A stretch of 64,000 bases of DNA, taken from Candidatus Latescibacterota bacterium (lineage in GTDB: Bacteria; Latescibacterota; UBA2968; UBA8231). The DNA is taken from NCBI GenBank assembly GCA_965215195.1, contig CBDCDC010000002.1, positions 928,001 through 992,000 of the forward strand. The letters run 5' to 3'. Made by a program: the position numbers and the translations under genes. Under the pieces are notes generated by a model that was not told the origin of the DNA, did no database searches, and saw only the letters and a program-made list of their open reading frames with translations. Of the stretch, positions 670-27,555 are shown piece by piece; position 1 is the stretch's first letter, and every line of letters starts with the position of its first letter.

Positions 670-699
670 GTTGCTTGCTTTCTCCTTGTGTTGTTGAAG

Positions 700-4085: not shown

Positions 4086-4229
4086 GAAGGGTTCCTTTCT
4101 GCGAAATGGTTGGCGATAAAATGCTAAAAAGGGCCGGGGGCGTCCAGCACGGCACTGCTTGCGAGTCCGCGTCCAGCCGCCTAGATTGACCGGCACCTTT
4201 CTTCACCTGCGGCCCACAGGAGACCTGTC

Positions 4230-6152: not shown

Positions 6153-6207
6153 TTTCTTCTCTTGCTTTGGCTTGACGCTGTTTTATTCGCTTCGTTAGGT
6201 ATTTAGA

Positions 6208-8286
6208 ATGAATAGACAACAAGCGGAGAGGCTTCTACAGATAGCTGTAGGCAACCCTGATGCGCGGTTCAGGGCTGGGCAGTGGGAGGCTATTGATGCC
6301 GTGTCGAATTGGAGAGCCAAGCTGCTCCTAGTGCAACGGACGGGTTGGGGTAAGAGTGCCGTGTACTTCGTCGCCACGAGAATCTTCCGCAACGCAGGTC
6401 GCGGCCCAACCATCATCGTATCGCCGCTGCTAGCCCTGATGCGAAATCAGGTTGAGGCGGCGCAGCGACTCGGGATACGCGCTGCATCGATCGACTCGTC
6501 CAATCGCGCTGACTGGGACGACATCATCACGGACGTGCTTAACGATCAGATCGACGCCTTGCTGATAACGCCCGAACGGCTCGCCAACGAAGACTTTCGC
6601 CAGAGCGTACTGATGAAAATTGCAGATCGTATCGGTCTGCTCGTTGTGGACGAGGCACATTGCATCTCCGACTGGGGCCATGACTTCCGGCCCGACTACC
6701 GGCGCTTGACCAACGTGCTGAGAATGCTTCCGCGCAACATGCCGGTCCTCGGCACGACCGCAACTGCCAATGACCGGGTGATTGGCGATATTAAGACGCA
6801 GCTAGCTGATTTCCAAATCCAGCGTGGTCCCCTCTCGCGTCACTCGCTTTCGCTCCAAACCATAAGGCTTGACAGTCAAGCCTCGCGCTTGGCTTGGCTT
6901 GCCCAATCAATTCCGCAGATCCCTAGCAGTGGCATAGTGTACGTACTGACCAAACGCGACGCCGAACAGGTTGCCGCTTGGCTGTCTCGGCAGGGCATTT
7001 CAGCTCGGTCCTACCACGCAGCCGTCTACCACAATAAACGCCGGCGGCTGGAAAACATGCTGCTGAACAACAAGATCAAGGTCTTGGTCGCCACCACAGC
7101 CTTAGGTATGGGATACGACAAGCCGGACCTCAGCTTCGTCATCCACTATCAGGCTCCTAGTTCCGTCGTCGCCTACTATCAGCAGGTGGGCAGAGCCGGC
7201 CGGGCCATCCCTAGTGCCGTTGGGATCCTGCTCGCGGGAAAGGAAGACGAGCAGATTCACGAGTACTTCCGGCGGACGGCCTTTCCACCAGAACATGCGG
7301 TTGCGGCGGTACTCGATGCATTGGAAGAATCTGACGGTAAGTCCATCAATGAACTACAGAACCAGCTAAACATGCGCCAGAGCCAGATTGAGCAGGTCCT
7401 GAAGGTCCTCAGCGTCGAAGTCCCTTCACCTTTCATAAAGGTCGGTTCAAAATGGCACCGCACCGCGGCCGAATTCGAGTTGGACAGGGAGCGCATTCAT
7501 CGACTTTCTGGCCAGAGAGAACGCGAGTGGCAAGAGTTTCAGGAGTACGTCGATACCGACGACTGCTTCATGGAATACCTCGGACGCATGCTGGACGATC
7601 CCGCAGGCGAGAGATGCGGCAAGTGCGCGAACTGCATGGAAAAGCCCGTGATCGCAACCACAGTTGAGCACCCACTGGAGGTAGAAGCGGTCCGCTTTCT
7701 GCGCCGATCGGAACTGCCGTTCGAGCCGAGAGCGAGAATTTCCAAAGGGACACTGCCGACTTACGGGTTCCCAAATGACCGCTTAGTACCGGAGCTGCAG
7801 GCGTCGGAGGGGCGAATTCTGTCGCAGTGGGGAGATGCTGGCTGGGGTGCGGTCGTCGCCGAAGACAAGGAATCTGGGCACTTCCGAGACGAGCTCGTCC
7901 GCGCAGTGGCTGAAATGATCCGAGAGCGATGGCAGCCAGACCCGCCTGCAAAATGGGTTACTTGCGTTCCATCGCTTCGGTGCCCGGCCTTGGTTCCTGA
8001 TTTTGCACGACGCTTGGCATCTACGCTCCAGCTTCCATTCTGCGATGTGATCCAGAAAGTACGAGACTGCCCGCCGCAGAAACAGCAGGAGAACACCTTC
8101 CATCAGTGCCGAAATCTCGACGGCGCATTCAAAGTCGTCGACAGCGTTTCGGCTTCGCCCGTCCTACTCATCGACGATGTAATCGATTCACGCTGGACGA
8201 TGACTGTTCTGGCCGCCCTCCTACAGCACTCTGGAAGCGGCTTGGTTTATCCCGTAGGGCTGGCATCAGCGAGCTCAGGAGGTTGA
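6208..8286 (+). CDS. RecQ-family helicase with C-terminal ComF-like phosphoribosyltransferase domain
   Basis: RTGWGKS, VVDEAHCISDWGHDFRPDY, TATA, ALGMGYDKPD, YYQQVGRAGR and Zn motif CGKCANC. The C-terminus has QKQQEN..RNLDGAF..VLLIDDVIDS, a PRTase PRPP-loop. No HRDC domain recognised. Confidence 0.85.
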   Translation: MNRQQAERLLQIAVGNPDARFRAGQWEAIDAVSNWRAKLLLVQRTGWGKSAVYFVATRIFRNAGRGPTIIVSPLLALMRNQVEAAQRLGIRAASIDSSNRADWDDIITDVLNDQIDALLITPERLANEDFRQSVLMKIADRIGLLVVDEAHCISDWGHDFRPDYRRLTNVLRMLPRNMPVLGTTATANDRVIGDIKTQLADFQIQRGPLSRHSLSLQTIRLDSQASRLAWLAQSIPQIPSSGIVYVLTKRDAEQVAAWLSRQGISARSYHAAVYHNKRRRLENMLLNNKIKVLVATTALGMGYDKPDLSFVIHYQAPSSVVAYYQQVGRAGRAIPSAVGILLAGKEDEQIHEYFRRTAFPPEHAVAAVLDALEESDGKSINELQNQLNMRQSQIEQVLKVLSVEVPSPFIKVGSKWHRTAAEFELDRERIHRLSGQREREWQEFQEYVDTDDCFMEYLGRMLDDPAGERCGKCANCMEKPVIATTVEHPLEVEAVRFLRRSELPFEPRARISKGTLPTYGFPNDRLVPELQASEGRILSQWGDAGWGAVVAEDKESGHFRDELVRAVAEMIRERWQPDPPAKWVTCVPSLRCPALVPDFARRLASTLQLPFCDVIQKVRDCPPQKQQENTFHQCRNLDGAFKVVDSVSASPVLLIDDVIDSRWTMTVLAALLQHSGSGLVYPVGLASASSGG

Positions 8287-8287
8287 A

Positions 8288-9949
8288 ATGGCTACATCTG
8301 GCAACAGCGATGCGGTGCTGCTCCTGACGGCGCACCTTTCCGGCTCTGATGACAATGGAGCGAAACCTTTAACGACGAAAGAATGGTGGACATTTGATAA
8401 TTGGCTCAAGGAGCGGAATGTAACCCTAGAATACCTCTTAGAGAATGTGGATGAAGTCTTGGGAGGCAGGTCCGACCCTAGGGGAACTATGGAGAGGATT
8501 AAAAGGCTTTTAGACCGCGGAAGTGCCTTGGGGCTTGCTAAGGATAGGTGGAAGCAAGCGGGCTTATGGTGGTTGACGAGGGCCGACGAGGATTATCCGG
8601 CTCGCCTGAAGAAGCGCCTCGGCCAAGCATCCCCTGCGGTGCTGTACGGCTGTGGTCGCCAAACGCTGCTGCGCTCTAAAGGAATCGCGGTCGTCGGCTC
8701 TCGCGCAGCCTCGGATCGCGATCTTTCTTGGACTCGATTGTTCGGCGAAGCTGTGGCTGATGCCGGTTACTCCGTCGTATCGGGCGGAGCGCGGGGGGTT
8801 GATCAAGCCGCAATGTTCGGGGCACTGGACAAGGGAGGCACTGTTATCGGCATTCTTGCGGACAGCCTGTTGCGCGCGTCGTCAAGCAAGATGTACCGCT
8901 CCCATCTGCGGTCTCAGGAGCTGGTGCTGATCTCGCCGTTCCATCCCGAAGCAGCTTTCACCGTCGGCAGGGCCATGCAAAGGAACAAGTACATCTACTG
9001 CCTGTCCGACAAAGCGTTAGTTGTTCATTCCGGTATAAAGGGTGGTACTTGGGAAGGTGCCATTGAGAACATGAAGAGACAATGGGTGGTCCCTATCTGG
9101 GTTCGCCAAGATAGCGATAATTCTCCTGGCAATGCGGCCCTCTCAAGCGTCCAGCAGACACAAGGTCCTCCGCAGGAAGTAATCCGGCAGATTATAGAAG
9201 GCGACTCCTTACACACTGAAGTAGAGACCGCTTCTTCTGGTGCAGGAAACGTCTCGGAACAACCCGAGTACACCAAGCCGCAGGAGCAAAGTTCTGACCT
9301 ATACGAGCACTTCATTCAGTCGCTCCGCGAACGACTTGCCAACGGGGCTAGCAAAAAATCGCAGTTGGAAAGCCACTATGGCCTAGTGAAGAAGCAGTTC
9401 GACGCTTGGATGAAGAGAGCTGTCGAGGAAAAAGCCGTCACCAAGGACTCGAAGCCGGGGGTCCTTTATAGTTTGAACCAACAGTTTGATCGTATTAGCC
9501 CGCAGGAGCCATCTGGCAACGCTGACCTATACGAGCACTTCATTCAGTCGCTCCGCGAACGACTTGCCAACGGGGCCATCAAAGAATCACAGTTGAAGAA
9601 ACACTATGGCCTAGTGAAGTCGCAGTTCGACGCTTGGATGAAGAAGGCTATTGAGGAAAAAGCCGTCACCAAGGACTCGAAGCCGGGGGTCCTTTATAGT
9701 TTGAACCAACAGACCGAGCACGCCAGTTCGCAGGAGCAAAGTTCTGACCTATACGAGCACTTCATTCAGTCGCTCCGCGAACGACTTGCTAACGAGTTTC
9801 TTAAAAAATCAGAACTGGAAAGCCACTATGGCCTTGTGAAGTCGCAGTTCGACGCTTGGATAAAGAGGGCTATTGAGGAAAAAGTGATCATTAAGAAGAA
9901 GTCGAATCCAGCAGTGCTTAGTTTGAACCAACAGACCGAATTGATTTAG
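8288..9949 (+). CDS. DprA/SMF (SLOG-fold) protein with three tandem C-terminal winged-helix-like repeats
   Basis: YPARL..P.VLYGCG, IAVVGSR, VVSGGARGVD, QRNKYIY, GGTWEGA; three DLYEHFIQSLRERLAN units. 1-nt gap after the RecQ stop. Confidence 0.85.
   Translation: MATSGNSDAVLLLTAHLSGSDDNGAKPLTTKEWWTFDNWLKERNVTLEYLLENVDEVLGGRSDPRGTMERIKRLLDRGSALGLAKDRWKQAGLWWLTRADEDYPARLKKRLGQASPAVLYGCGRQTLLRSKGIAVVGSRAASDRDLSWTRLFGEAVADAGYSVVSGGARGVDQAAMFGALDKGGTVIGILADSLLRASSSKMYRSHLRSQELVLISPFHPEAAFTVGRAMQRNKYIYCLSDKALVVHSGIKGGTWEGAIENMKRQWVVPIWVRQDSDNSPGNAALSSVQQTQGPPQEVIRQIIEGDSLHTEVETASSGAGNVSEQPEYTKPQEQSSDLYEHFIQSLRERLANGASKKSQLESHYGLVKKQFDAWMKRAVEEKAVTKDSKPGVLYSLNQQFDRISPQEPSGNADLYEHFIQSLRERLANGAIKESQLKKHYGLVKSQFDAWMKKAIEEKAVTKDSKPGVLYSLNQQTEHASSQEQSSDLYEHFIQSLRERLANEFLKKSELESHYGLVKSQFDAWIKRAIEEKVIIKKKSNPAVLSLNQQTELI
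9296..9935 (+). repeat. Three intragenic tandem repeats (periods 228 and 222 bp)
   Basis: GACCTATACGAGCACTTCATTCAGTCGCTCCGCGAACGACTTGC starts at 9296, 9524 and 9746. Confidence 0.95.
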
Positions 9950-10042
9950 AAGGCAAATATCGTCGGGTGTGCGGTACACCGCTGCGGTGCGTTGGTGGGG
10001 TCACGTTCCCGCCCGCAGCCAGTTGTAGCGATCATTGGGCGC
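9948..10042 (-). pseudogene. Internally deleted remnant of a Uma2 endonuclease gene
   Basis: AGAAGGCAAATATCGTCGGG..GCGGTACACC..TGCGTTGGT..GCCCGCAGCCAGT..TCATTGGGCG is colinear with 27629-27764 of the intact Uma2 gene, with deletions. Confidence 0.85.
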
Positions 10043-10110
10043 AGCTTGACGCTATTTGTAATCTCGTCAACCTTTAGTAAGCTAAAGATAACCACGCCCG
10101 AGATAATAGT

Positions 10111-12702
10111 ATGACCCAAGCAGATGCACACACCGACTACGAGCGATTGTTGCTGGTCTATCTCCACGACCCGGTCGACAAGGCTCTCGACATCCGCGGA
10201 CACGAGGCCCGCGCCACCCGCTACGCTTCGCACGCCCGCGGCTGGGACGCGACCCGCCGAGAAATCAAGCATTCAGCTCAGCTAGCAGACCAACTCGCCG
10301 CCATCGCCGAGCGCATCCCCATGCCGACCGCAGGACCCAAGGGAGCGCGCGCCGTCGGCCCGGAAGACGGGCGGATCGAAGTGCGGCATCCGGTCAGCGC
10401 ACAAACAGACATGCTGGAGGGGCTGGCCCTCGACGAGAACCGCGTGGCAGAGGTGATTGACCGCATCGTCGCCGGTCTGCCCGACGACCCGCGGACGCGC
10501 TTTCTCGCGCTCTGGCGGCTGCTGCCCGAACGGCTTGCCCCACAGATCGCTCGGCTGCCGGCCGACACCCGCGTACCCGACCACACGCTGATTCAACACG
10601 CAGACATCACAAGCGGCATCTGGGCCAGTACAGAGACACGCGGCCATGCGTACCTATCGCTCTCGCTCGGCCCGGTGCAGACGTTTATCGAAGCGGCCCG
10701 CAGCGTGCGCGATTTGTGGTCGGGCAGCGCCATTCTGTCGTGGCTGACGTTCCAAGGCATCGGCCCGGTGCTCAACGCACTCGGGCCGACTGCGCTCGTC
10801 TATCCAGCCCTGCGCGGCAATCCGCTGATGGACCTGTGGCTGCGCGAGCAGGACGGGCTAGAGGACCGAGTACCAGTACCGTCGAAAACATTGCGCCGGG
10901 CCCCGTCCATCCCCAACCGCTTTGTCGCTCTCGTACCCTATGGGCCGGACGGTTCCCATGCCAAAGCCATGGCGCAAGCCTGTGCCAAAGCGGTCCGTGC
11001 GGCTTGGCAATGCCTTGCAGACGAGGTGCATCGCTCCCTCGATGGGAAATTCTCGGCAATCAACCCTGATTGGGCACGGCACTGGCAAGAGCAAGTGAAT
11101 GGCTTCTTCGACGTCAAAACCTCCATTCTACACGAGCGAGACCTGCGCGATGAACAGCTAGCCCGTCTGATCGGCGGCAAGGACTCATTCGACGAAGTGT
11201 GGTGTGAGGCCGCCAAGGTGCGTAGACTGGCCGACGCGATTCCACGCAACGAGCGTCCGGGCTACGACCAGCATTCAGCCGGCCGCTGGCAAGCCCAACT
11301 CGAAGCATCGGCGCGGCTGATGGAAGCCCAGCGTTCTATCCGCCACGTGCCGACTATTGAGGTCGAGACACCCACTCCGCCCAAGTGCAGCCTGCTCGGC
11401 TCCTACGAGCAGATGGGGCCGGCCGCTCTCAGTGATTCCCGAGACTTCTGGGACGAGGCTGCCAAGGCAGTCTCGGTAGCCGGCGTCCGCCTGCGAAAAC
11501 GCGAGCGTTTTTCCGCGGTCGCCTTGTGCAAGCGGTTTGCCGCACCGGCGTTCTTCGTCCGCCAATTAAAGCTCAATCAGCGTGCCTTGCGCTTCCCGGA
11601 TACGGCGACAGTAGCAGCGGCCGCATGGCTGGCCGCGGAGGGAATCAACCCGGACGATATCCGGTGTGAACACAACGACTGGAACGGCCGCTGGCTTCAC
11701 CAAAAACACCAAAACGATGTGGAGGATGGCGACCAACCTCCGCCGGAGGGAGTTTGGCAGAAAATCAAGGCCGCACGTAAGGAGAATCCACCGCCCGCTT
11801 ACTACGCGATTCTGGCGATGGACGCGGACGACATGGGCCAGTGGCTCAAGGGCGATCATGCGCCCAAGGTGCGCGAGGTCCTGCACCCGAAAATGGTCCG
11901 TTACTACGAGCAGCTTGGCGACGAGGCCACGGCCGGCCTTGAGGCCCGGCGGCCCGTTGGCCCGGCCCTGCACGCCTCAATCAGCGAAGCTCTCAACAAT
12001 TTCGCCAGCCACATCGCCCCCGGCATTGTAGAGAACGACAAGGGCACGATGATCTACTCAGGCGGCGACGATGTCTTGGCCCTGCTGCCGGCGCGCCGGG
12101 CGGTCGCTTGTGCGGCAGAGTTGTGCCGCGCCTTCCGCGGCGAGGACAAAGGCCCGCCCGGCTATATAGAGCGAGACGGGCACCAACTGCTGACCATGGG
12201 CGCGAAGGCCACCCTATCGGCCGGCATTGCCTTTGTACACTACAAGGAGGATTTGCGCTTGGCACTCCAAGCGGCCCGCGACGCGGAAAAAACCGCTAAG
12301 AAAAACGGCAAGAATCAGCTTGCACTTTGCTTTATGCGCCGTTCCGGCGAGCACTCCAAGGCTGGTCTGTCGTGGGAACATGGGCCGTGGTTCCAAAAGA
12401 TGATTGCCATCTTCGCCGATGGGGCCACCGCCCGCTGGACCTATCGCCTGCGCCAAGAACTGCCGACCTTGCAGGGCAGCAACATTTCCGCCGGAGCTGT
12501 TGCTGCCGAGATACGACGGCTCGTGGATCGGACCAAAGACGACAAGGCCTCCGGTTCAACTGGTCCTACAGGCGAAGACGCGGAGCGCTGGTGGCAGGCT
12601 TTTTCTCAAGCAGGGCGACAACGTGGAGATCTTCTCAAGGACTTCACCCTACTGTGCCAAGGGGCGTCGTTCGTAGCGCGAGGTCGCGATGAAGGACGGT
12701 AA
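10111..12702 (+). CDS. cas10: Type III-B Cas10/Cmr2
   Basis: YLHDP N-terminus, PADTRVPDH, LGPVQTFIEAARSVRDLWSGS, Palm motifs YYAILAMDADDMG and YSGGDDV. Confidence 0.95.
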   Translation: MTQADAHTDYERLLLVYLHDPVDKALDIRGHEARATRYASHARGWDATRREIKHSAQLADQLAAIAERIPMPTAGPKGARAVGPEDGRIEVRHPVSAQTDMLEGLALDENRVAEVIDRIVAGLPDDPRTRFLALWRLLPERLAPQIARLPADTRVPDHTLIQHADITSGIWASTETRGHAYLSLSLGPVQTFIEAARSVRDLWSGSAILSWLTFQGIGPVLNALGPTALVYPALRGNPLMDLWLREQDGLEDRVPVPSKTLRRAPSIPNRFVALVPYGPDGSHAKAMAQACAKAVRAAWQCLADEVHRSLDGKFSAINPDWARHWQEQVNGFFDVKTSILHERDLRDEQLARLIGGKDSFDEVWCEAAKVRRLADAIPRNERPGYDQHSAGRWQAQLEASARLMEAQRSIRHVPTIEVETPTPPKCSLLGSYEQMGPAALSDSRDFWDEAAKAVSVAGVRLRKRERFSAVALCKRFAAPAFFVRQLKLNQRALRFPDTATVAAAAWLAAEGINPDDIRCEHNDWNGRWLHQKHQNDVEDGDQPPPEGVWQKIKAARKENPPPAYYAILAMDADDMGQWLKGDHAPKVREVLHPKMVRYYEQLGDEATAGLEARRPVGPALHASISEALNNFASHIAPGIVENDKGTMIYSGGDDVLALLPARRAVACAAELCRAFRGEDKGPPGYIERDGHQLLTMGAKATLSAGIAFVHYKEDLRLALQAARDAEKTAKKNGKNQLALCFMRRSGEHSKAGLSWEHGPWFQKMIAIFADGATARWTYRLRQELPTLQGSNISAGAVAAEIRRLVDRTKDDKASGSTGPTGEDAERWWQAFSQAGRQRGDLLKDFTLLCQGASFVARGRDEGR

Positions 12703-13765
12703 TACCCTACTCCAGCTATCGCTTGAGCCGGTTGACGGCCTCTTCTTCCGCGATGCGCGGCCATTTGAGCAGGCCAGCCGGGCACAGTCCGGCCTGCCCA
12801 TGCCGCAGACCCTCGCCGGTGCCGTGCGTAGCCTGCTGCTGGAGCGGCACGGGGTGGATTTCGTCCGGCTGGGAGAACGGATGCAAACCGGCGCTTCCTT
12901 TGCCGAAGCTCTGACCGAGCTTGGCCCGGAGGTTGCAGCCGTGGCCTCGGTGCAGGTACGCGGCCCTTGGTTCACCTTGAATGGCGAGGTACTGATGCCG
13001 ACGCCGGCCACCCTCAAACGAAAAAAGAAAACCGCAAAGCTCGTGCGGCTTGACCCGCTCAAAGTGCCGCTGCCGGGTTGGCGGCCCGAAGTGCCGGGGA
13101 TGCTGCCGTTGTGGCGGCGCGGCCGGGAAACCGCAGAGCCCGCCGATGATTTCCTCAAACTGTCCGGTTTGCATCGCTTCCTCAACGGCGGTACGCCAAA
13201 ACCGGACGAATTGGTGCCGACAAACGACTTGTACGATTTCGACGACCGCACCGGCATTGGCATCGATCCGAGCCGCAACGCCGCGGCCGAAGGTTTCATT
13301 TATGGCATCAGGATGCTGGTCCTGAAATCTGAGGCTGGCTTGTACGCTGAACTGAGCGGTCCTGAGGCCGCGCTAGTGCCGATCGCGGCCGAACCCGGGC
13401 TGATGCGTTTGGGCGGCGAAGGCCGGCACGTCGCGGTCCGCACGGTTGAGCGGCCGGTCAACTGGCCGCAGATACCGCCCGCAGCGGACAAAGGCCGGCT
13501 GGTGCTGCTGGCCACGCCGGCTTGGTTCAATGGCTGGAAGCCGCCGGCCCTCGATCCGGTAGCAGCGGCCGTTGGTAACGGGCAGCCGGTTTCCGGCTGG
13601 GACTTAGCCAAAGGCGCTCCCAAGCCCAACCGCTTCATGGTCCCGGCCGGGTCCGTCTATTTTTTGCCACCAAACGCCCAAGTCCCAGACAAATTAGTCG
13701 CTGACGACGAAGACGCGAGCGTCGGGTGGGGTAGCTTTCTGGAGGGAAACTGGAACTATGTCTGA
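12689..13765 (+). CDS. cmr3: Cmr3 (Cas5 group)
   Basis: LEPVDGLFFRDARPF, P.PQTLAGA, RTGIGID, RLGGEGR, VSGWDLA, VPAGSVY, GWG. Confidence 0.95.
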   Translation: MKDGNTLLQLSLEPVDGLFFRDARPFEQASRAQSGLPMPQTLAGAVRSLLLERHGVDFVRLGERMQTGASFAEALTELGPEVAAVASVQVRGPWFTLNGEVLMPTPATLKRKKKTAKLVRLDPLKVPLPGWRPEVPGMLPLWRRGRETAEPADDFLKLSGLHRFLNGGTPKPDELVPTNDLYDFDDRTGIGIDPSRNAAAEGFIYGIRMLVLKSEAGLYAELSGPEAALVPIAAEPGLMRLGGEGRHVAVRTVERPVNWPQIPPAADKGRLVLLATPAWFNGWKPPALDPVAAAVGNGQPVSGWDLAKGAPKPNRFMVPAGSVYFLPPNAQVPDKLVADDEDASVGWGSFLEGNWNYV

Positions 13766-14651
13766 CAAAACCTTGCTGTTCATTCACGCCCTGACCGGAC
13801 TCCATCCCGGCAGCGGCACGGCCTTGGGCGCGGTCGATTTGCCGGTGCAACGCGAGCGTCATACCGACTGGCCGCTGATACCCGGCTCGTCGCTCAAGGG
13901 CGTCATGCGGGCCGAATACGCGCAGGACAACCGGAAGGATGAAGACGTTCTGGCTGCGTTCGGGCCAGAGACTGAGGCTGCGTCTGACCACGCCGGCGCG
14001 GTCGCCTTTTCGGACGCGCGCATCCTCGCCTTCCCGGTGCGCTCGCTGACCGGCGTGTTCGCTTGGGTGACCTGCCGTGACGTACTGGCCCGGCTTTCGC
14101 GTGATCTCGGGCTCGTTGGCGGCGATAGCTTCCCGGCTGTTCCCACAGTCGCTAAAGACAAAGCCGCTTGCGTCGCGGACAGTCGGCTGCTGGCGCACGG
14201 CGAACAACTCATGCTGGAAGAGTTCGAATTCTCACGCGACGGCGACGCACAGGAAATTGCCAACTGGATCGCTGAGCGGGCCGTGGCAGACGCGGCCACG
14301 AAAATTCGGCTGCGCTCGCATCTGGCCGTTCTGCACGATGACGATTTTACCCACTTCGTCCGCAACGCCACCGAGGTCGTAGCTCGGGTCGGGCTCGACG
14401 AACAGAAGACCGTGCGCAAGGGTGCCCTCTTCTACGAGGAATACCTGCCACCGGAGACCCTCTTCTACTCGCTGGTGCTGTGCAGCAAAAGCCGCCGCAA
14501 GGCACGCGACAAAAGCGCTGCGGAGATTCTCACGTGGCTGCGCGAAAAAGCACCTGAGACGCTCCAAATCGGCGGCGGCGAGACGGTCGGCAAGGGCTTC
14601 TGCGCGGTGCGCTTTGACGACGCGGCCAAGGAGGAAAACAATGAGCGATAG
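13758..14651 (+). CDS. cmr4: Cmr4 (Cas7-group backbone RNase)
   Basis: LHPGSG..VDLPVQRERHT..IPGSSLKG with the catalytic Asp present, LFYEEYLP, QIGGGETVGKG. Confidence 0.95.
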   Translation: MSDKTLLFIHALTGLHPGSGTALGAVDLPVQRERHTDWPLIPGSSLKGVMRAEYAQDNRKDEDVLAAFGPETEAASDHAGAVAFSDARILAFPVRSLTGVFAWVTCRDVLARLSRDLGLVGGDSFPAVPTVAKDKAACVADSRLLAHGEQLMLEEFEFSRDGDAQEIANWIAERAVADAATKIRLRSHLAVLHDDDFTHFVRNATEVVARVGLDEQKTVRKGALFYEEYLPPETLFYSLVLCSKSRRKARDKSAAEILTWLREKAPETLQIGGGETVGKGFCAVRFDDAAKEENNER

Positions 14652-15069
14652 CCGGCCCACCCTCGACCAACGTCGGGCCCAACACGCTTGGAAGACTGTA
14701 GAGCAAGCCAAAGCCTCACTCAACGCGAAAAAAGACAAGGAGGATTTTGCCCGCGAAGCCAAGCGGCTGCCGGTGCGCATCAAGACCGCCGGCTTGGGGC
14801 AGGCACTCGCTTTTCTCCTCGCAAAGGCCAAGCAGGACAAAAACAAAGGAGAAGACGCCCGTGGCCGACTGCTGGTTGCGCTAGGCGACTGGCTCCTAAA
14901 AGAGCGCGAATTGGCGACCCGTCCTAACGCCGCCGCCGACCGCGTACTAATCCAAACCCTCATCAACGGCGACGCCAACCTGCTGCGCCGCGCCACTGAA
15001 GAGGCGCTCCTGTACCTGCAATGGCTGACCCGGTTCAGCGAGGCCGAACTCGGAACGGGAGAGGAGTAA
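14641..15069 (+). CDS. cmr5: Cmr5 (Cas11 small subunit)
   Basis: MSDSRPTLDQRRAQHAW..LPVRIKTAGLGQALAFL..ATEEAL..WLTRFSEA; GGAGG RBS before ATG at 14641. Confidence 0.92.
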   Translation: MSDSRPTLDQRRAQHAWKTVEQAKASLNAKKDKEDFAREAKRLPVRIKTAGLGQALAFLLAKAKQDKNKGEDARGRLLVALGDWLLKERELATRPNAAADRVLIQTLINGDANLLRRATEEALLYLQWLTRFSEAELGTGEE

Positions 15070-15072
15070 GCG

Positions 15073-17457
15073 ATGGCTCGCAGCCCTAGCCGTTCCCAAC
15101 GCCGGGACCGGACGCATACTATGCCAGCCTCCAACGCCGACCAACTCCCCAACGGGCCAATCCTTCCCCGCTCTACGTGTAACCTCGTAGATAAGGTCGT
15201 GCTCAATCACCGCCATGCCGGCCTGCAACTCGACAAGCTGTCGTCAGCCGGGGAGATGGAAAAGCAAAAACTTGCGCTGGTCGATGTCGCGCACACCTGC
15301 GGCGACGCGAAGTTGCTGGAGATGCTGATCAACCGCCGCTGCGCTGCACTGAACGCTCTCCGTGCTGAACGTCTCCTGATGACCACCCGCGGCTCGCTGA
15401 CCCTGCACCTGTCGCGGTCGGGCGCGCTGGAAAACGCCGGCATCGCCCTGCATCCGGTGTACGGCTTCGTCTATTTACCCGGCAGCGGCATCAAGGGCTT
15501 GGTCCGCTCTTGGGCTGAGACAGTGTGGGCTCCGGCGCAGTCTGACAAAAAGGAGGCGTGGCGGACGATTGAAAAAGCCTTCGGCTGGAGTCCTCAGTCG
15601 GAAAACCACAAGTTCCCGCAGCCGAAAAAGGGATTGCCGGGTTGGCGTCCCAGCGAAATAGAAGCACCGAAAGGGGCCGCGAGCGGACGGCTGGTGTTCC
15701 ACGACGCTTGGCCGCTTAGCTGGCCCAGACTAATAGTCGATGTCGTCAACAATCATCACCCCGACTATTACGACGGCAAAGACGATCCCGGCGACTGGGA
15801 GGACCCGAGGCCCGTGTATTTCCTCGCCATCGGCGCAGGCAACCAGTTCGACTTTGCCATCTCCGACCGCAAGCCCGACGACGGCCTGCTCAGCTTGGCA
15901 AGAGGCTGGCTAACAGACGCGCTGACCTCCGAGGGGGCCGGTGCCAAGACTGCGGCTGGCTACGGACGCTTTGAGCCGGTCGAGATGCTCTCGCCCGATT
16001 TCGCCAAGGCCGGCTTTGCCAGCGCGAGTTTTGACTTGAAACTGGTCACCCCCGCCTTTCTCGCCGGAGCCTCCCAACAGAAAGACGACTGCGACCTGCG
16101 TCCGGCCACCCTGCGCGGCCTGTTGCGCTGGTGGTGGCGCACCATGCACGCGGCCCACCTCGACCGGGCTTCGCTCAAGCGGCTGGAAACCGCGGTCTGG
16201 GGCGACGCGGAATCGGGCAGTCCGGTTCGCATTGCTGTGAATTTGGTGGAAGGTGGAGAGCCACGGCAGCACCCGGACAAGCAAGATCGACAGTTCCAGC
16301 AAGAACACGGTCTGCGGCGGCCCCAATCCAGTCAAAGAACAATCCAAGGATTGTTCTACGCTTCCTACGGCATGGCAGAAAAGGACCGTCGTTGGTTTCG
16401 CCCTGCTGGGTCGCTCTGGCGCGTCACCTTGACGGCCCGACGCGGTTATTTCGACAAAAATAAAAAAGCCCCTGCCATCCCCCTCTCGCCGGACCTGCTC
16501 ATAGAACAAGCCAACGCAGCCCTGTGGCTACTGACGCGGTTTGGCGGGGCCGGCTCGCGGTCGCGCAAGGGCTTCGGTTCTTTTGACGATATTGAGGTGC
16601 AGGGCATCGGCTCAATGGAAGATTGCATCAAGGCCGCAACGCGGTTCCGGGACGCCTGCGGCCTTGGAGGGAGGCGGGGACATCCGGTTGACGCGCCGGC
16701 CCTAGAGGATGTGCTGACGATGGACGATGTGGCGACACGTTGGGAGGATCCTTGGTATGCGCTTGACCGGACCGGCATGGCACTGCAACTGTTCGCCAAG
16801 AGTCTTGATTCCGAGAAGCGTATTGCGCTCGGCCTGCCGCGCCGTGTAGGTAGGGGCCGCAATGCACAGTCTCTCAGAGCTGGACAGATTGATCGTCACG
16901 CCTCCCCAGCACTTTGGAGCCTCGCAAAAAGCCGAAACGGAACCCTGCTGGTTCGCCTCATCGCATTCCCGGCCGCACGGCTGCCTGAGAAAGCCGCTAG
17001 CAGGACAATTCTGCAAAACCTTATCGACTTTGCACGTCAGCAATTGGAACAGCAGGCCGGGCAGTCCCCGCGCCCAAGCGGGCGAGGAGGTCGCGGACCG
17101 TCGGGCACCGGACGCCCGGACAGGCGAAGAAGTAACAGGTCGGCACCCTCGCGTCCCCCGCAGGGAAGCCCCAAGGCCGACCTCCCCAAAGCGCATGATC
17201 GCGTCAAGGCCGAACTTTTGGAGGAGAAGACGAAGAAAGGCGGATGGAAGGCCAAGCACATAGATAGCGGTTTATCAGGCCCGATACAAGACGCTGGGAA
17301 CGTCCCCGCCGACGCCAAGCCGGGCCAGCCCGTCGAACTGACGGTCGCCTCGGTTGGCTCGAAAGAGATGCAATTCAAATGGGCCGAACCCCGGCCGCCT
17401 AAGAAAACATCCGGCCGGCATAGCAAGCAGGAGCCTCGCAGAGGAAGCCGCCGATGA
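15073..17457 (+). CDS. cmr6: Cmr6-Cmr1 fusion with C-terminal low-complexity linker and OB/S1-like tail
   Basis: Cmr6 part: LHPVYGFVYLPGSGIKG..GAGAKTAAGYGRF. Cmr1 part: LVTPAFLAGA..LRPATLRGLLRWWWR..FGGAGSRSRKGFGS. Single 794-aa frame. Confidence 0.9.
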   Translation: MARSPSRSQRRDRTHTMPASNADQLPNGPILPRSTCNLVDKVVLNHRHAGLQLDKLSSAGEMEKQKLALVDVAHTCGDAKLLEMLINRRCAALNALRAERLLMTTRGSLTLHLSRSGALENAGIALHPVYGFVYLPGSGIKGLVRSWAETVWAPAQSDKKEAWRTIEKAFGWSPQSENHKFPQPKKGLPGWRPSEIEAPKGAASGRLVFHDAWPLSWPRLIVDVVNNHHPDYYDGKDDPGDWEDPRPVYFLAIGAGNQFDFAISDRKPDDGLLSLARGWLTDALTSEGAGAKTAAGYGRFEPVEMLSPDFAKAGFASASFDLKLVTPAFLAGASQQKDDCDLRPATLRGLLRWWWRTMHAAHLDRASLKRLETAVWGDAESGSPVRIAVNLVEGGEPRQHPDKQDRQFQQEHGLRRPQSSQRTIQGLFYASYGMAEKDRRWFRPAGSLWRVTLTARRGYFDKNKKAPAIPLSPDLLIEQANAALWLLTRFGGAGSRSRKGFGSFDDIEVQGIGSMEDCIKAATRFRDACGLGGRRGHPVDAPALEDVLTMDDVATRWEDPWYALDRTGMALQLFAKSLDSEKRIALGLPRRVGRGRNAQSLRAGQIDRHASPALWSLAKSRNGTLLVRLIAFPAARLPEKAASRTILQNLIDFARQQLEQQAGQSPRPSGRGGRGPSGTGRPDRRRSNRSAPSRPPQGSPKADLPKAHDRVKAELLEEKTKKGGWKAKHIDSGLSGPIQDAGNVPADAKPGQPVELTVASVGSKEMQFKWAEPRPPKKTSGRHSKQEPRRGSRR

Positions 17458-17503
17458 CCGATTCGCAAATCGCCCCTATTACCTCGCAGAGGCGAACGCA
17501 ACT

Positions 17504-18265
17504 ATGAGGATTTCGCACACATTCGCCGATAAACAAAAAAGCATCTGCAACGATCCAGCCGGCGAGAAACACCCATCCGCTGCGGCCATCCCGACGCCCC
17601 CATTGGAAAACGGCGATCGGCTCACGCGGGAGGAGTTTGAGCGACGCTATAAGGCCATGCCAGACGTAACGAAGGCGGAACTGATCAATGGAGTGGTATA
17701 TATGAGCTCACCTGTTCGCTTTCGCGCTCATGGCAGACCGCACGTATTGCTGCTCACTTGGCTGGGGACATATAGTGCGTTCACGCGAGGGGTCCTTTGT
17801 GCGGATAACACCACAGTTCGCCTCGGGGCAGAGAGCGAGCCGCAGCCAGATGCCTTGCTGCGCCTAGAGCCAGAGGCGGGTGGAAATTCGCGGATTAGCG
17901 CCGACGATTATGTAGAAGGCGCACCAGAGTTGTTAGCCGAAATCGCGGCCAGTAGTGCCTCGTACGATATGCACGATAAAATGGATACCTATCGCCGCAG
18001 CGGCGTGCAGGAGTATCTTGTCTGGCGCGTGTACGACGAGCAACTCGACTGGTTTGCTCTCCGCGACGGTGAGTATATCCGTCTGACGCCTGATGAGTCT
18101 GGCGTGATTTCCAGTCAGGTGTTTCCGGGGCTGCGGTTGTCCTTGTCCGCATTATTGGCGGCTAATGCGGCTCAGGTCGTGGCCGAATTGCAGAAAGGAC
18201 TAGGGACGGCCGAGCACGCCGCGTTTGTCGCCCGACTAGGAGATGCCCACGACCCGTACCAATAG
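17504..18265 (+). CDS. Uma2-family PD-(D/E)xK endonuclease-like protein
   Basis: PPLENGDRLTREEFERRY..AELINGVV..EPQPDA..GAPEL.AEIA..DK..Y..GVQEY; start uncertain. Confidence 0.9.
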   Translation: MRISHTFADKQKSICNDPAGEKHPSAAAIPTPPLENGDRLTREEFERRYKAMPDVTKAELINGVVYMSSPVRFRAHGRPHVLLLTWLGTYSAFTRGVLCADNTTVRLGAESEPQPDALLRLEPEAGGNSRISADDYVEGAPELLAEIAASSASYDMHDKMDTYRRSGVQEYLVWRVYDEQLDWFALRDGEYIRLTPDESGVISSQVFPGLRLSLSALLAANAAQVVAELQKGLGTAEHAAFVARLGDAHDPYQ

Positions 18266-18321
18266 CAGCAAAGTCGGCACCAACGACATTGAAAATCCAC
18301 TTAAACACCGGGAGATATCCT

Positions 18322-19452
18322 ATGCCTAGACACACCCTTCTCTGCACTGTTGGGACGAGCTTGTTCTATCCCAATTTGTCTGGTCTCACTCACGAACCGC
18401 AGGATGACCCCATCCGTGCTGCCTTGGCTAGCGCTTATAACGAACAGAAATGGTCGAAGGTGGCGACTCAGCTATATTTAAATGTCGAACCAACGGAACG
18501 GCTCTGTGGGGCGGAGATCAATTCGGTGACTGATCTCGTCGAGCATGAACCCGTCGAGAAAGGTGCCCTTCACCTGCTATATTCCGATACGGAGGATGGA
18601 AAAGCTATCGCTGCCGTTCTGGAGCACTACTTTAGCCTTGACTGGCAGCAGGTACACACCCATCGCGTGGAGGACTTAAGTGATGAATACCCGAGAGCAT
18701 TTCGGACTCGAGGCTTGCGCAACTTGGCGAAACTCTTCGGTGAACGAGTGCGTGAAGCAGGGGCCGATTTTTGTGCCATAAACGCCACCGGTGGCTATAA
18801 AGCCCAAATCGCCATTGCCGTGCTCATGGGTCAAGCACTCAACATTCCAGTGTATTACAAGCATGAACGCTTTGATGCTATTATCCCCTTTCCCCCTATG
18901 CCGGTGGCCCTCGATTTTGAGCTATGGGAACGGGCCAGCGGCATGTTTATGGTGCTCGGTAAGCCCAACGCGTGTGAGCCGTATGAGAATTTTAGCGAGG
19001 ATTGGGATGAGCGCTTTGAACCGCTGGTCATCCGGGTACGGATTGACGACGAGGATTATCTGGAACTCTCGGCAACCGGCCAGATTTTTCACGACACCTT
19101 CCGATCCCGTTTTCAGCAGCATCAGAGCACTAGGCTTCCGCGTGCCGCACGCGAGGACGAGAAGAGGCCGCCCGCTCTGGGAGCTCACGGCTACAACGAG
19201 GCACGAGACAACATTGAGCGCCATTTGCAAAGAATCACCGATGAACGGCCTTATGTCCGCTCCTGCCATTCGACATACTGGAATCCAGATTTGCCTGAAA
19301 GCAATCGGTTTCGGATGGCAAAAGGGGAAGTCCAAGGCATATACTCGAACGGGACTTGGTGCGTGAAATTTACAGTACGCACGACAGCGGAGGATGAGGA
19401 CCAATTACGGATCGTCGTAGCCGATCTCAATGAGTGGCTAGAGACCGCCTAA
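18322..19452 (+). CDS. APE2256-family CARF effector (CARF-wHTH plus C-terminal RelE/DUF2103-like domain; Cami1-like)
   Basis: LLCTVGTSL, GAEINS, YSDTEDG, INATGGYKA and VYYKHE are CARF motifs; LSATGQI wing; about 110-aa C-terminal alpha/beta domain; GGAG RBS before ATG at 18322. Confidence 0.8.
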   Translation: MPRHTLLCTVGTSLFYPNLSGLTHEPQDDPIRAALASAYNEQKWSKVATQLYLNVEPTERLCGAEINSVTDLVEHEPVEKGALHLLYSDTEDGKAIAAVLEHYFSLDWQQVHTHRVEDLSDEYPRAFRTRGLRNLAKLFGERVREAGADFCAINATGGYKAQIAIAVLMGQALNIPVYYKHERFDAIIPFPPMPVALDFELWERASGMFMVLGKPNACEPYENFSEDWDERFEPLVIRVRIDDEDYLELSATGQIFHDTFRSRFQQHQSTRLPRAAREDEKRPPALGAHGYNEARDNIERHLQRITDERPYVRSCHSTYWNPDLPESNRFRMAKGEVQGIYSNGTWCVKFTVRTTAEDEDQLRIVVADLNEWLETA

Positions 19453-19474
19453 AAGACGCGCCCGGAGCACCCCC

Positions 19475-20512
19475 ATGCTCACCCTCTACGTCACCGAACC
19501 CTCGGCTGTCGTCCGCCGCACGGCCGGCTCCATCACCGTCACGCTCGATGAAGACCCCGACGGCACGGGTCCCCTGCCCGAACGACGGCGACGCTTGCTT
19601 GAAGTTGAGCCGCATCGCTTGGAGCTGATTGCATTGGTGGGCCGCGCCCACATCACCTTAGACGCGACGCGGCTCTGCTTAGAGCAAGGCATTGCAGTCG
19701 CTTGGTTTCGCAGGAACGGCGACTTTGTGGGCCGCCTCGTCCCCGAACTGTCGCGCACGGCCGATCTGCGCTTGGCGCAGTTTCGCCTCGCGGACGACGA
19801 GCACCAAGCACTGCCGCTGGCCCAAACCTTTGTCGCAGCTAAACTCCACAATGCAGCCGGGGTACTCGCGGCCCTGCGCTCCAACCGCCGCAATGAGCCG
19901 ACCCTCGGCCGCGCCATAACCAAACTCAAAGCCATGGCCGCGACCGTAGCCCAAGCACCCACGCGCGAGGCTCTGCTGGGCTTTGAAGGCGATGCGGCCC
20001 GCCGCTACTTTGCGGGCTTCAAGCTCGGGTTCACCAGCGACATTCGCTTTGTTAGCCGCGCCCGCCGGCCGCCGCCGGACCCGGCCAATGCCCTGCTCTC
20101 GTTTGGCTATGTGCTGTTGGCCAATGCCTTGGCCAGCCTTTTGGAGGCCCGTGGTTTTGACCCGTATCTCGGGTTTATGCACACGGTCCGGTCCGGTCGG
20201 CCCAGCTTGGCCCTCGACTTGCTCGAAGAACTGCGGCACCCGGTAGTCGATCGCTTTGTCTTGCGCGTTTGCAATTTGCGCCAACTGCGGCCGGCGCATT
20301 TTGAGGCCGATTCTGCGCGAGGGGGTGTGCGTCTTACACGCGATGGGATGCACATCTTTTTTCGCGCTTGGGAAGCGTTTATGGATGCTCCCCTGCCCGG
20401 AATCGCCGAGAACATCGCACCAGAAAATTTGATTCGCCGTCAAGCCGATCGCTTAGCCGCTCACGTGCGCCAACGCGATCCCTATAAACCCTTGCTTTTG
20501 CGTCGCTTATAA
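19475..20512 (+). CDS. cas1: Cas1 (no RT or Cas4 fusion)
   Basis: LLGFEGDAARRYF, RRPPPDPANALLSFGY, GFDPYLGFMH, LALDLLEELR. Confidence 0.95.
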   Translation: MLTLYVTEPSAVVRRTAGSITVTLDEDPDGTGPLPERRRRLLEVEPHRLELIALVGRAHITLDATRLCLEQGIAVAWFRRNGDFVGRLVPELSRTADLRLAQFRLADDEHQALPLAQTFVAAKLHNAAGVLAALRSNRRNEPTLGRAITKLKAMAATVAQAPTREALLGFEGDAARRYFAGFKLGFTSDIRFVSRARRPPPDPANALLSFGYVLLANALASLLEARGFDPYLGFMHTVRSGRPSLALDLLEELRHPVVDRFVLRVCNLRQLRPAHFEADSARGGVRLTRDGMHIFFRAWEAFMDAPLPGIAENIAPENLIRRQADRLAAHVRQRDPYKPLLLRRL

Positions 20513-20525
20513 AGGAGGACGGCCT

Positions 20526-20813
20526 ATGTCTCACTATGTCGTATGCTACGATGTGGTCGATAACAAACGCCGCTACAAGGTGGCCGCTTGTTTGGATGCT
20601 TATGGCGATCGCGTACAGAACAGCGTGTTTGAACTGCCCATGGATAGCACACTTTTGGACAAGTGCATCGCCGAGGTCGCTGGTCTGATCGACGCGGCCA
20701 AAGACAATGTAGCCATCTATCGCCTCTGCTCGGCCTGTGCGACCGAGCGTTTCTATTTGGGCGTGGGGGAAAAGGCCGAACGCATCGGCGATGAGCAGGT
20801 CTTCATCGCGTGA
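20526..20813 (+). CDS. cas2: Cas2
   Basis: YVVCYDV..RR.KVA..L..YG.RVQNSVFE..D.V.IY.LC; AAGGAGG RBS. Confidence 0.95.
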   Translation: MSHYVVCYDVVDNKRRYKVAACLDAYGDRVQNSVFELPMDSTLLDKCIAEVAGLIDAAKDNVAIYRLCSACATERFYLGVGEKAERIGDEQVFIA

Positions 20814-21009
20814 GCGTCTGTCGTAACCACCGATGCCGCCGCAGAAGCCCCTTGGTTACGAATTTGACTAACCTTTTGAAAACCTTATATTTACGTCCAA
20901 GAGCCGAACTGGTAGCCGCGATATTGGGCGGCATGTGCAAGCCTCAGTCGTTAGGTTACGAAAAGCGTTCAGGTAACTGCTTGTCAGACAAGCAGAAATC
21001 TAGGACGCC
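20814..21009 (+). promoter_or_regulatory. CRISPR leader with direct and inverted motifs and IHF-like sites
   Basis: Relatively AT-rich spacer between cas2 and the first repeat. TCGTAACCA/TGGTTACGA inverted pair; GGTTACGAA at 20854 and 20954; palindrome CTGCTTGTC-A-GACAAGCAG at 20977-20995. Confidence 0.85.
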
Positions 21010-26510: not shown

Positions 26511-26564
26511 CCCTGCCAGTACATTTGTTGTTTGTCGCCTATAAATAGATCGGCACAAGCCGCT

Positions 26565-27380
26565 ATGCACTGGCACAAACACCTCGAAGTGCTGCTTTCT
26601 CGCGTTCAGATACAGGCGTGGCAACTTCTGCTCGACACGCCCGAGGTGCGGGCGACCGCGCCCATGTTGCGCGGCGTCTGGGGACGCGCACTGCGACATT
26701 TGGATGAGGAAGTTTATCAGCAGGTTTTTGCAGGCAAAGCATTGGGACATCGCCGCATCCCCCGCTACATCCTGCGACCTGCCCCCCCCGACCCGGCGAT
26801 TGCACCGGCTATCGAGTGGATCCTGCTCGGGGTGGATGAGGAACTGGAGGAAGTGCTGTGGCGGGCATGGGATGTGGCCAGCGGCATGGGGCTGGGGCCG
26901 GAGCGCGTACCGTTTCGCATCCGCGAGCGGCGGCCCCTCAGCGCGGGCCAATCCGACTGGCCCCTGACCGGCGATCCAGCCACAACGCCGTGCAGCCTAC
27001 AGTTTGGTACGCCGCTGCGCCTACTCCGCCGCGGCACCCTCCTTGCGGCACCCGACTTAGCGGCCATCGCCACAGCCGCTATGCGCCGCTATGCTGGCCT
27101 AGCCGGTATAACCGGCGGAGAATCCTACCGCGACTTGATGCGAGCCGTCAAGCAGCAAGCCGCCGCAACGCCGGCCGCCCCTTGGCGCGGTGGTCGGCTC
27201 GATTTTTTGCGCTGGTCCAGCACCCAACAGCGCGAGCTAAACCTGCGCGGCGTAGTCGGCGCGTTGGACTTGCCCGCTGGTCCCGGCCCGCTCTGGCCCC
27301 TGTTGGCCGCATCCTGTTGGACCCACATTGGCAAAGGCGCGGTATTTGGCTTAGGCCAATTGTGCATCGAAAAATCCTGA
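26565..27380 (+). CDS. cas6: Cas6 crRNA-processing endoribonuclease
   Basis: MLRGVWGRAL, F.TPLRL, RWSSTQQR, and C-terminal glycine-rich loop HIGKGAVFGLG; adjacent to the array. Confidence 0.85.
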   Translation: MHWHKHLEVLLSRVQIQAWQLLLDTPEVRATAPMLRGVWGRALRHLDEEVYQQVFAGKALGHRRIPRYILRPAPPDPAIAPAIEWILLGVDEELEEVLWRAWDVASGMGLGPERVPFRIRERRPLSAGQSDWPLTGDPATTPCSLQFGTPLRLLRRGTLLAAPDLAAIATAAMRRYAGLAGITGGESYRDLMRAVKQQAAATPAAPWRGGRLDFLRWSSTQQRELNLRGVVGALDLPAGPGPLWPLLAASCWTHIGKGAVFGLGQLCIEKS

Positions 27381-27555
27381 GCTATACCACCTCCCGCTCC
27401 CTTCTCCGCGTATGCGCTGCGCTCCGTTGCCCCTTCCGCTCGGACAATTGCATGGTTCGGCTCCGCTTCAGAGCATTAAAAAGGGCGGCCATCTCAATGT
27501 GCTAAGATGACCACCCTCGCGTCGTACAGCGCCCAATCCTGAGCTACCCGGGCCG

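Follow-up and report, generated by a model that had tools for sequence, protein, structure and literature searches.

The window analysed here, a 64,000-nt stretch of the genome of a Candidatus Latescibacterota bacterium (GCA_965215195.1, contig CBDCDC010000002.1, positions 928,001 to 992,000; position 1 is the first letter of the stretch), carries a two-gene module, psyrT-psyrA, directly ahead of a type III-B CRISPR-Cas operon. An open reading frame (ORF) at 6208-8286 (692 aa) is followed by a second at 8288-9949 (553 aa), with a single nucleotide between the stop codon of one and the ATG of the other. Both lie on the + strand, as does cas10/cmr2, which starts at 10111 after a spacer of 161 bp (9950-10110). 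The GC fraction of the pair is 0.556 (psyrT 0.576, psyrA 0.531, the repeated tail of psyrA 0.496), compared with 0.643 for the upstream amidohydrolase gene and 0.630 for cas10-cmr6. Profile searches assigned the two proteins to the PsyrTA (RqlHI) family, a toxin-antitoxin and anti-phage system. The genome of the window is referred to below as G000, and its relatives by further G numbers.

The first protein matched the PADLOC profile for PsyrT (PDLC03928) over essentially its whole length, with residues 1-690 aligned to positions 1-686 of 689 (E 1.6e-294), and Pfam reported DEAD and Helicase_C domains. It passed the NCBIfam recQ_fam subfamily cut-off (258.6 against 219.8) and fell below that of the recQ equivalog (287.3 vs 640.2 bits), aligning only to model positions 12-342 of 591. 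The expected motifs are intact: Walker A GWGKS (K49), DEAH at 148, motif VI QQVGRAGR, cysteines 453, 470, 473 and 476, and LLIDDVIDS at 653-661, which resembles the phosphoribosyl pyrophosphate (PRPP) loop of phosphoribosyltransferases (PRTases). These motifs are kept in nine aligned homologues from other phyla, with DEVH instead of DEAH in one of them (L042) as the single exception.

The second protein matched the PADLOC PsyrA profile (PDLC03927; E 1.6e-145, residues 1-390 on positions 1-391 of 398), with two more matched stretches in its tail. The profile for ShosA, the DprA-like antitoxin of the ShosTA system, gave a much weaker match confined to the Rossmann core (E 7.8e-25, residues 92-258). 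Pfam placed DNA_processg_A at residues 88-285 (E 6.9e-39) and also reported SLOG cluster 4, and the score against the NCBIfam dprA equivalog lay below the cut-off (96.9 vs 191.15 bits). An AlphaFold2 model of the full-length protein had a predicted local distance difference test score (pLDDT) of 75.2 and resolves an N-terminal helical domain, a Rossmann core and a disordered linker, followed by the tail. The coordinates of all features are collected in Table 1.

Table 1. Features of the psyrT-psyrA locus and its borders, in window coordinates.
Feature	Position	Strand	Description and basis
psyrT (rqlH), toxin	6208..8286	+	RecQ-like superfamily 2 (SF2) helicase, four-cysteine zinc module and C-terminal ComF-like PRTase domain; PADLOC, Pfam, NCBIfam, motifs
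psyrA (rqlI), core	8288..9259	+	N-terminal helical domain (residues ~9-90), DprA-type Rossmann/SLOG domain (~93-304), disordered linker (308-335); PADLOC, Pfam, AlphaFold2
psyrA tail unit 1	9260..9493	+	Predicted winged helix-turn-helix; repeat analysis, unit hidden Markov model (HMM), AlphaFold2
psyrA tail unit 2	9488..9721	+	Predicted winged helix-turn-helix; repeat analysis, single-unit AlphaFold2, Foldseek
psyrA tail unit 3 and stop codon	9710..9949	+	Predicted winged helix-turn-helix; repeat analysis, AlphaFold2
Junction element, left copy (GCTTGACGCTGTTTT)	6170..6184	+	15 nt with TTGACG hexamer; 5′ edge of the PsyrTA cassette
Degenerate remnant, 3′ part of a Uma2-family gene	9950..10043	-	Homology to the intact flank gene 27556-28167, at 27631-27720
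Junction element, right copy (GCTTGACGCTATTTG)	10044..10058	+	Marks the 5′ border of the Cas block; G018 and G043 have it natively between orf117 and cas10
Type III-B block	10111..27380	+	Context rather than part of the system; profile matches, array detection

What follows on homologues is taken from passages of the literature. A preprint (10.1101/2022.05.11.491447) equates PsyrTA with RqlHI, reports that a psyrA deletion was not transformable, possibly from toxicity, and draws an analogy between ShosTA and PsyrTA; PsyrTA is listed there among two-gene systems involved in phage resistance (Millman et al., 10.1101/2022.05.11.491447). RqlH of M. smegmatis is described as a 691-aa 3′-5′ helicase in which a RecQ-like ATPase is combined with a tetracysteine zinc domain and, in place of HRDC, a C-terminal domain of the ComF-like PRTase type (PMC3378886). 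Expressed alone, RqlH of E. coli F11 caused SOS induction and filamentation, for which the PRTase domain and its PRPP pocket were required (Russell & Mulvey 2015, PMC4670107). The same study describes RqlI as a 400-aa protein with a DprA homology region, a molybdenum cofactor (MoCo)-binding region and a C-terminal helix-turn-helix (HTH), which neutralises RqlH and was co-immunoprecipitated with it only when the PRTase domain was present. The last 80 residues of RqlI, which contain the HTH, were dispensable for neutralisation, helicase-dead RqlH mutants were more genotoxic, and rqlH was always found upstream of rqlI (PMC4670107). In our own sample of 80 species-level loci, PsyrT lies directly upstream of PsyrA in 65; it is partial in three, absent in four and cut by a contig end in eight.

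The window pair resembles RqlHI, as far as the cited passages describe it, in its toxin of ~690 aa with RecQ-like ATPase, Cys4 zinc module and ComF-like PRTase along a full-length profile match, in an antitoxin with a DprA homology region and a C-terminal HTH (here a predicted winged HTH, wHTH), and in a toxin gene that stands upstream of the antitoxin gene and abuts it on one strand. It differs in its host, an uncultured lineage, and in the length of the antitoxin: a tandem triplication of the C-terminal HTH unit brings it to 553 aa, compared with ~400 aa for RqlI and a PsyrA profile of 398 positions. ShosTA also pairs a DprA-like antitoxin with a PRTase-domain toxin. However, ShosT is described with an N-terminal pyrophosphatase-like domain and without a helicase (PMC12961424), and ShosA, which comprises a SAM-like N-terminal domain and a DprA Rossmann domain and binds single-stranded DNA, lacks a wHTH tail and ends merely in a disordered stretch or a single additional helix (PMC11961720, PMC12961424). 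Given the helicase of the toxin and the profile scores reported above, we rejected an assignment of the pair to ShosTA.

Several points of an earlier note, written from the letters and translations alone, can be settled at this stage. The layout it described, with a 1-nt gap, co-orientation with cas10 161 bp away and a GC content below that of the flanks, is borne out by the coordinates and by the GC fractions (0.556 vs 0.63-0.64). Its description of the helicase, with RecQ motifs, a zinc site and a ComF-like PRTase replacing HRDC, agrees with the intact motifs and the full-length PsyrT match. The analogy that it drew with ShosTA is also made in the preprint, in the passages available, whereas the locus itself is PsyrTA by profile scores and by the presence of the helicase.

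Both genes have separate counterparts in the genome. A recQ-like gene at G000:C2:2859169-2861007 scored 541.5 bits over model positions 9-590 of 591, and a dprA gene at G000:C1:261959-262588 scored 249.5 bits, above the NCBIfam cut-off of 191.15. Full-length PsyrA (E < 1e-120) was found in 10 of 24 other genomes of the genus, in 5 of 12 of a second genus and in none of four genomes from three further genera, while a weaker DprA-type match was present in 41 of 41 genomes searched. By this distribution PsyrA is an accessory gene. A 1751-aa open frame contains a third RecQ-like ATPase (G000:C2:149303-150385), which scored 338.6 bits over positions 3-336 of the recQ model.

Comparison with relatives places the pair in a variable hotspot that extends from orf117 (5799-6152) to a Uma2/CoA-transferase flank (27478 onward). 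In G001, G002, G006, G010, G013 and G022 the end of psyrA is followed, within ~150 bp at most, by the homologue of window 27478 or 28304 onward, and the 17.5-kb Cas block is absent; the G006 contig ends after 8.2 kb and covers only the psyrTA-to-flank side. Between orf117 and psyrT these genomes carry 2-7 kb of other cargo, namely an AAA-ATPase_like gene with PDDEXK_9, an Upf1-like superfamily 1 (SF1) helicase with matches to Mokosh MkoA profiles (E 1e-70 to 1e-73) and a P450; a DDE transposase also occupies this space in relatives. In G018 the alignment passes from window 1-6206 straight to 10044-14831, so that 6207-10043 is missing, and in G005 and G043 orf117 is joined directly to cas10. 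G007 carries both modules in the order orf117, cas10 to cas6, an orf117 fragment and psyrT-psyrA, so that PsyrTA lies beyond the Cas block. Across these arrangements, PsyrTA and the Cas block behave as independent cassettes of one hotspot.

Other relatives show further states of the same site. In G013 and G021 psyrA is present without psyrT; here a one-unit psyrA lies downstream of an Upf1-like SF1 helicase with an MkoA-profile match (L029 8651-13021 and L030 8706-14261, respectively), and homology to the window begins about 30-50 bp before the psyrA start. G009 and G012 have divergent PsyrTA (49% and 39% identity) at this position. In G012 (L028 8738-13929) the intact divergent pair (49%, 39%) stands beside the leftover 3′ end of a psyrT of the window type (residues 556-684, 85%) with one tail unit, two generations of PsyrTA at one site.

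The borders of the cassette are marked by short repeated elements. The 15-mer GCTTGACGCTGTTTT recurs with two mismatches on the far side of the pair, and two matches within the window at up to two mismatches were obtained in 0 of 100 shuffles; an exact 14-mer of the element occurs nowhere else in the 6.13-Mb genome. Homology of the relatives' PsyrTA cassettes to the window begins at 6170, the first position of this element, which precedes psyrT in G001, G002, G007, G010 and G022 with an extended similarity of ~45 nt. It also precedes cas10 in G018 (as a single copy between orf117 and cas10) and in G043, and G007 has a variant. We infer a promoter from the TTGACG hexamer, which lies at a plausible distance from the start codons; a consensus scan of 5700-10400 did not flag the element and reported no + strand promoter.

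The segment between psyrA and the right copy has a 53-nt match (89%) to G000:C2:955631-955684 (window 27631-27684) and was also compared with G001 and G002. The intact gene that contains 27631-27684 has a Uma2 Pfam match and directly follows psyrA in relatives. After cas6, at about 27445-27520, the window has a degenerate CRISPR repeat and then a GC-rich hairpin (AAAAAGGGCGGCCATCTC...GAGATGGCCGCC); in G001 and G002 this combination also follows psyrA, and in G002, G010 and G022 it stands a short way before the psyrT element. These shared short elements, the 15-mer and the ghost repeat with its hairpin, are probably sites of cassette recombination. We had considered, from the absence of 9950-27478 in relatives, that the Cas block was inserted into an empty site; this direction was dropped. 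Losses are at least as likely as a gain, because the ghost CRISPR repeat lies beside psyrA in relatives and because the last tail unit of G001 is truncated and fused to post-cas6 sequence.

Further copies of these border sequences were seen. The degenerate repeat with hairpin lies at cassette borders in L025 (about 7930-8000 and 11850-11900) and L024 (about 8250-8300). Three Uma2-family (PF05685) sequences are present in the window: one at 17354-18265 between cmr6-cmr1 and csx1, the conserved flank gene at 27556-28167 and the decayed fragment at 9950-10043. A homologue of the first (82%) is found in G021, elsewhere in the hotspot.

The tail of PsyrA is the feature in which this antitoxin departs from its described homologues. 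Tandem Repeats Finder reported 9264-9884 of psyrA as a repeat of period 228 with 2.8 copies and 81% matches, corresponding to three protein units of ~76 aa (residues 325-402, 401-478 and 475-551) with pairwise identities of 75-83% in DNA and 66-77% in protein. AlphaFold2 modelling of unit 2 alone, from 20 aligned units, gave a pLDDT of 77.5 and the order helix, short strand, helix, helix, beta-hairpin; the full-length model shows three discrete units (block means of pLDDT ~80-93) joined by disordered linkers (pLDDT < 50). The top matches of the unit in a Foldseek search of the PDB were winged-helix regulators, among them SmtB, CzrA, ArsR, SqrR, HlyU, MarR and LmrR and also PadR-type proteins, with probabilities of 0.9-1.0, template modelling (TM) scores of 0.5-0.69 and E values of 0.014-0.09, none reaching E ≤ 0.001. 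No wHTH family of Pfam matched the unit, which drew only unrelated names below threshold (RIP, Filament), and a sequence search of the PDB returned no named family, the best match being to a homeodomain fusion (E 0.0012) and the remainder weak HTH matches. The predicted structures thus make a wHTH fold likely, and the unit corresponds to the single C-terminal HTH of RqlI. The triplicated wHTH tail of the earlier note is accordingly confirmed as a triplication, and its fold is a prediction.

Copy number of the unit varies widely. A homologue search with PsyrA returned 3273 hits; among the best 120, the unit HMM found one copy in 61, two in 3, three in 37, five in 3 and none in 16, a ranking that favours multi-unit proteins because the query itself has three. 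With a broader unit HMM, the 80 species-representative loci contained one copy in 64, two in 5, three in 2 and none in 9. Even same-site orthologues within the genus differ: G000, G001, G002, G006 and G010 have three units, and G013, G021 and G022 have one. In a tree of tail units (53 rows, 82 columns, with many unresolved forks), units 1 and 2 of the window pair with good support with units 1 and 2 of the homologue P0008, and unit 3 lies beside unit 3 of P0008 outside any well-supported set; the triplication in the window lineage is thus not a very recent one. For other proteins, units of the same protein group together, and P0007 has two identical units among its five, which points to repeated lineage-specific expansion or homogenisation.

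The unit is not confined to PsyrA. A profile search of 1.84 billion representatives found it in 444 proteins (E ≤ 0.001), and ten sampled from these comprised six DprA-type proteins, two ADP-ribosylglycohydrolases, one protein with an SMC/AAA_23-like N-terminus and one without a Pfam match. G000 itself encodes, at G000:C2:404586-407176, a DarT-family gene (PF14487, E 2.5e-18; L037 87-1031) followed by an ADP-ribosylglycohydrolase gene (PF03747, E 1.8e-40; L037 901-2676). This glycohydrolase ends in ~70 aa similar to the tail unit of PsyrA, matching positions 328-394 of the PsyrA profile (E 8.4e-5) and the unit HMM (E 0.003). The catalytic domains of this pair (~404.6-407.2 kb) are unrelated to those of PsyrTA and its tail unit is single, so that only the tail module is common to the two. 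By sequence similarity, one tail module thus appears on two different putative antitoxins of DNA-directed toxins, PsyrA and the glycohydrolase partner of DarT. The same profile stretch, 328-394, also matches ORFs of about 585-590 aa in G002, G007, G018 and G021.

In the passages of the PsyrTA and RqlHI literature consulted, we met no tandem expansion of the HTH tail. The HTH is reportedly dispensable for neutralisation, yet its tandem copy number spans 0 to 5, and this variation, with its signs of repeated lineage-specific expansion, argues that the tail is under selection of its own. A more ambitious reading is that the tail is a fast-evolving, variable-number wHTH array (0, 1, 2, 3 or 5 units) whose copy number would set how DNA is read. 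Its units would recognise the GCTTGACGCTGTTTT element before psyrT and cas10, so that PsyrA would control both its own cassette (autoregulation) and the type III-B operon (cross-regulation). The element would double as the recombination site that shuffles defence cassettes. We consider this combination unlikely.

A working model for the pair can be drawn from homologues, which supply the helicase polarity, the dependence of toxicity on the PRTase, the neutralisation and physical binding by the antitoxin, and the phage defence. PsyrT would be a RecQ-like 3′-5′ DNA helicase joined by a four-cysteine zinc module to a ComF-like PRTase domain, the presumed toxic part. PsyrA, a DprA-like Rossmann protein, would bind the PRTase domain and keep it silent until, presumably in the course of phage infection, this restraint is released or overwhelmed. 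Freed PsyrT would then exert PRTase-dependent genotoxicity, with DNA damage, SOS induction and filamentation, and growth and phage would stop. The helicase part of PsyrT might serve to sense DNA or as a brake, as the greater genotoxicity of helicase-dead RqlH, in the passages cited above, would suggest. The three winged-helix units, into which the family's single C-terminal HTH has expanded, most likely bind DNA for tethering or autoregulation and would not be needed for neutralisation, a view based on the RqlI truncation data and on the predicted fold.

We consider it very probable that window 6170-10043 forms a PsyrTA (RqlHI) toxin-antitoxin and anti-phage cassette complete in itself, and that its position beside the type III-B operon reflects a single variable defence hotspot in which the two are carried independently. 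Three other accounts have to be set against this. That the pair consists of housekeeping RecQ and DprA genes for repair or transformation, located here by chance, is extremely improbable and already contradicted. RecQ-family and DprA-family domains are indeed present, and the pair shares an SF2 RecQ-family motor with zinc module and a DprA Rossmann fold with the canonical proteins; but it has no HRDC domain, which is replaced by the PRTase domain, both proteins score far below the equivalog cut-offs (recQ 287 < 640, dprA 96.9 < 191), better recQ-like and dprA genes lie elsewhere in the genome, and the distribution within the genus is patchy. The earlier note had raised the question of whether these were the only recQ and dprA of the genome; separate genes for both were found, and full-length PsyrA has the patchy occurrence (10 of 24) described above, and both outcomes speak for an accessory defence gene.

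A functional tie to the type III-B system, in which the pair produces or protects prespacers for Cas1-Cas2 or is co-transcribed or co-regulated with cas10, is suggested by the shared strand, the distance of 161 bp without a detected intrinsic terminator, the similar 15-nt elements with TTGACG hexamer before both psyrT and cas10, and the presence of both modules in the hotspot of a second genome of the genus, G007. We judge it very unlikely. Cas10, Cmr3, Cmr4, Cmr5, Cmr6/1, Csx, Cas1 and Cas2 of the window found no match (tblastn, E ≤ 1e-4) within 10 kb on either side of PsyrA in any of the 80 species-level loci, a test in which very distant Cas families would be missed and some contigs are short. 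A simple k-mer detector, which recovers the window's own array, found no CRISPR-like array in the same intervals (0/80), and Cas matches beside PsyrA were likewise absent from all 13 relatives' loci. Cas10 homologues (70-83% identity) occur in 4 of 30 other genomes of the genus; among G000-G024, PsyrA is present in 11 and cas10 in 4, and the two co-occur in 2 genomes vs ~1.8 expected by chance, in a set of non-independent kin. PsyrTA is missing from the orf117-cas10 interval of G018, G005 and G043 and lies on the opposite side of the block in G007, and in G018 cas10 retains its own upstream element without PsyrTA. The prespacer supply that the earlier note offered as an alternative therefore finds no support in relatives, where the modules are separate and differently ordered, and the enrichment near type III loci for which it proposed a check is absent from both the 80 loci and the 13 relatives. 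As for its wider reading of a defence or conflict module, this was right in kind, but the system is one already known as PsyrTA. There is, finally, a slim chance that the pair is mainly an addiction module, stabilising the hotspot and the adjoining CRISPR-Cas block against loss rather than sensing phage. The RqlHI passages do describe toxin-antitoxin behaviour (PMC4670107), and a hotspot so fluid, with deletions, orphan antitoxins (G013, G021) and remnants (G012), would offer a substrate for selection on post-segregational killing. PsyrTA is nevertheless listed, in the passages cited, among systems shown to be involved in phage resistance (10.1101/2022.05.11.491447), and the toxin or the whole cassette has been lost in relatives without obvious compensation, so any stabilising effect would be weak at best. 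The two roles are compatible with each other.

Several observations weigh against an independent, functional PsyrTA cassette. Pfam Pribosyltran scored below its cut-off on PsyrT (17.9 vs 26.3 bits), so that the PRTase call rests on the full-length PsyrT profile match, and identity to enterobacterial PsyrT sequences among the sampled loci is ~59%. Toxicity, neutralisation and phage defence at this locus are all carried over from homologues, and the wHTH fold of the tail comes from moderate-confidence models with the Foldseek E values given above. The terminator-like sites in 5700-10400 either fall within the psyrA repeats or belong to the opposite strand, and shuffled sequence yields more of them; folding of 9940-10110 gave z = -1.86 and no hairpin with a following U-run. 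With neither promoter nor terminator found between psyrA and cas10 by these consensus scans, read-through into cas10 is possible. The ghost CRISPR repeat that relatives have beside psyrA shows that the hotspot has included a CRISPR array for a long time, so the neighbourhood is not a one-off accident; we accordingly make no claim about which module came first.

The adjoining Cas block has the order cas10/cmr2 (TIGR02577, E 1.6e-65), cmr3, cmr4, cmr5, cmr6-cmr1 fusion, Uma2, Csx1-like (Cas_APE2256), cas1, cas2, CRISPR array and cas6. The apparent cmr6-cmr1 fusion is a single 794-aa ORF at 15073-17457 with a Cmr6 match at residues 121-301 and a Cmr1 match at 322-505. Neither Cas4 nor a reverse transcriptase was seen in the scanned ORFs of the block, and no search was aimed at either. 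The array comprises ~71-72 repeats of 37 nt at about 21010-26450; a block of ~198 nt of repeats and spacers is present twice (22162-22359 and 22855-23052, 99% identity), and the repeat at about 22478-22514 has a broken 3′ end.

A look for RNA runs containing window 8000-12000, as evidence of co-transcription, listed none. Contigs of four DNA runs from one study covered 30/30 bins of 5500-12500 in 4/4 runs, and none of the listed pieces spans the entire stretch. Loose ends at 6702, 7574 and 8308, within or at the edge of psyrT and psyrA, probably represent co-occurring strains with other hotspot arrangements. Those at 10023/10028 were considered as an alternative junction and rejected; their letters match the Uma2 paralogue sequence of G001, and we take them for branches of the assembly graph at a gene fragment that is repeated.

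The pair is a known and named system, and the tandem expansion of its HTH tail is a modest architectural twist. Alone, the locus adds little: it is another PsyrTA, which the profiles now used by defence finders would recognise. The genus as a whole is a clean natural experiment, in which PsyrTA, a type III-B block and helicase or nuclease cargo are swapped at one chromosomal site, and the variation in tail copy number, together with this swapping, may be useful for work on PsyrTA and on defence islands.

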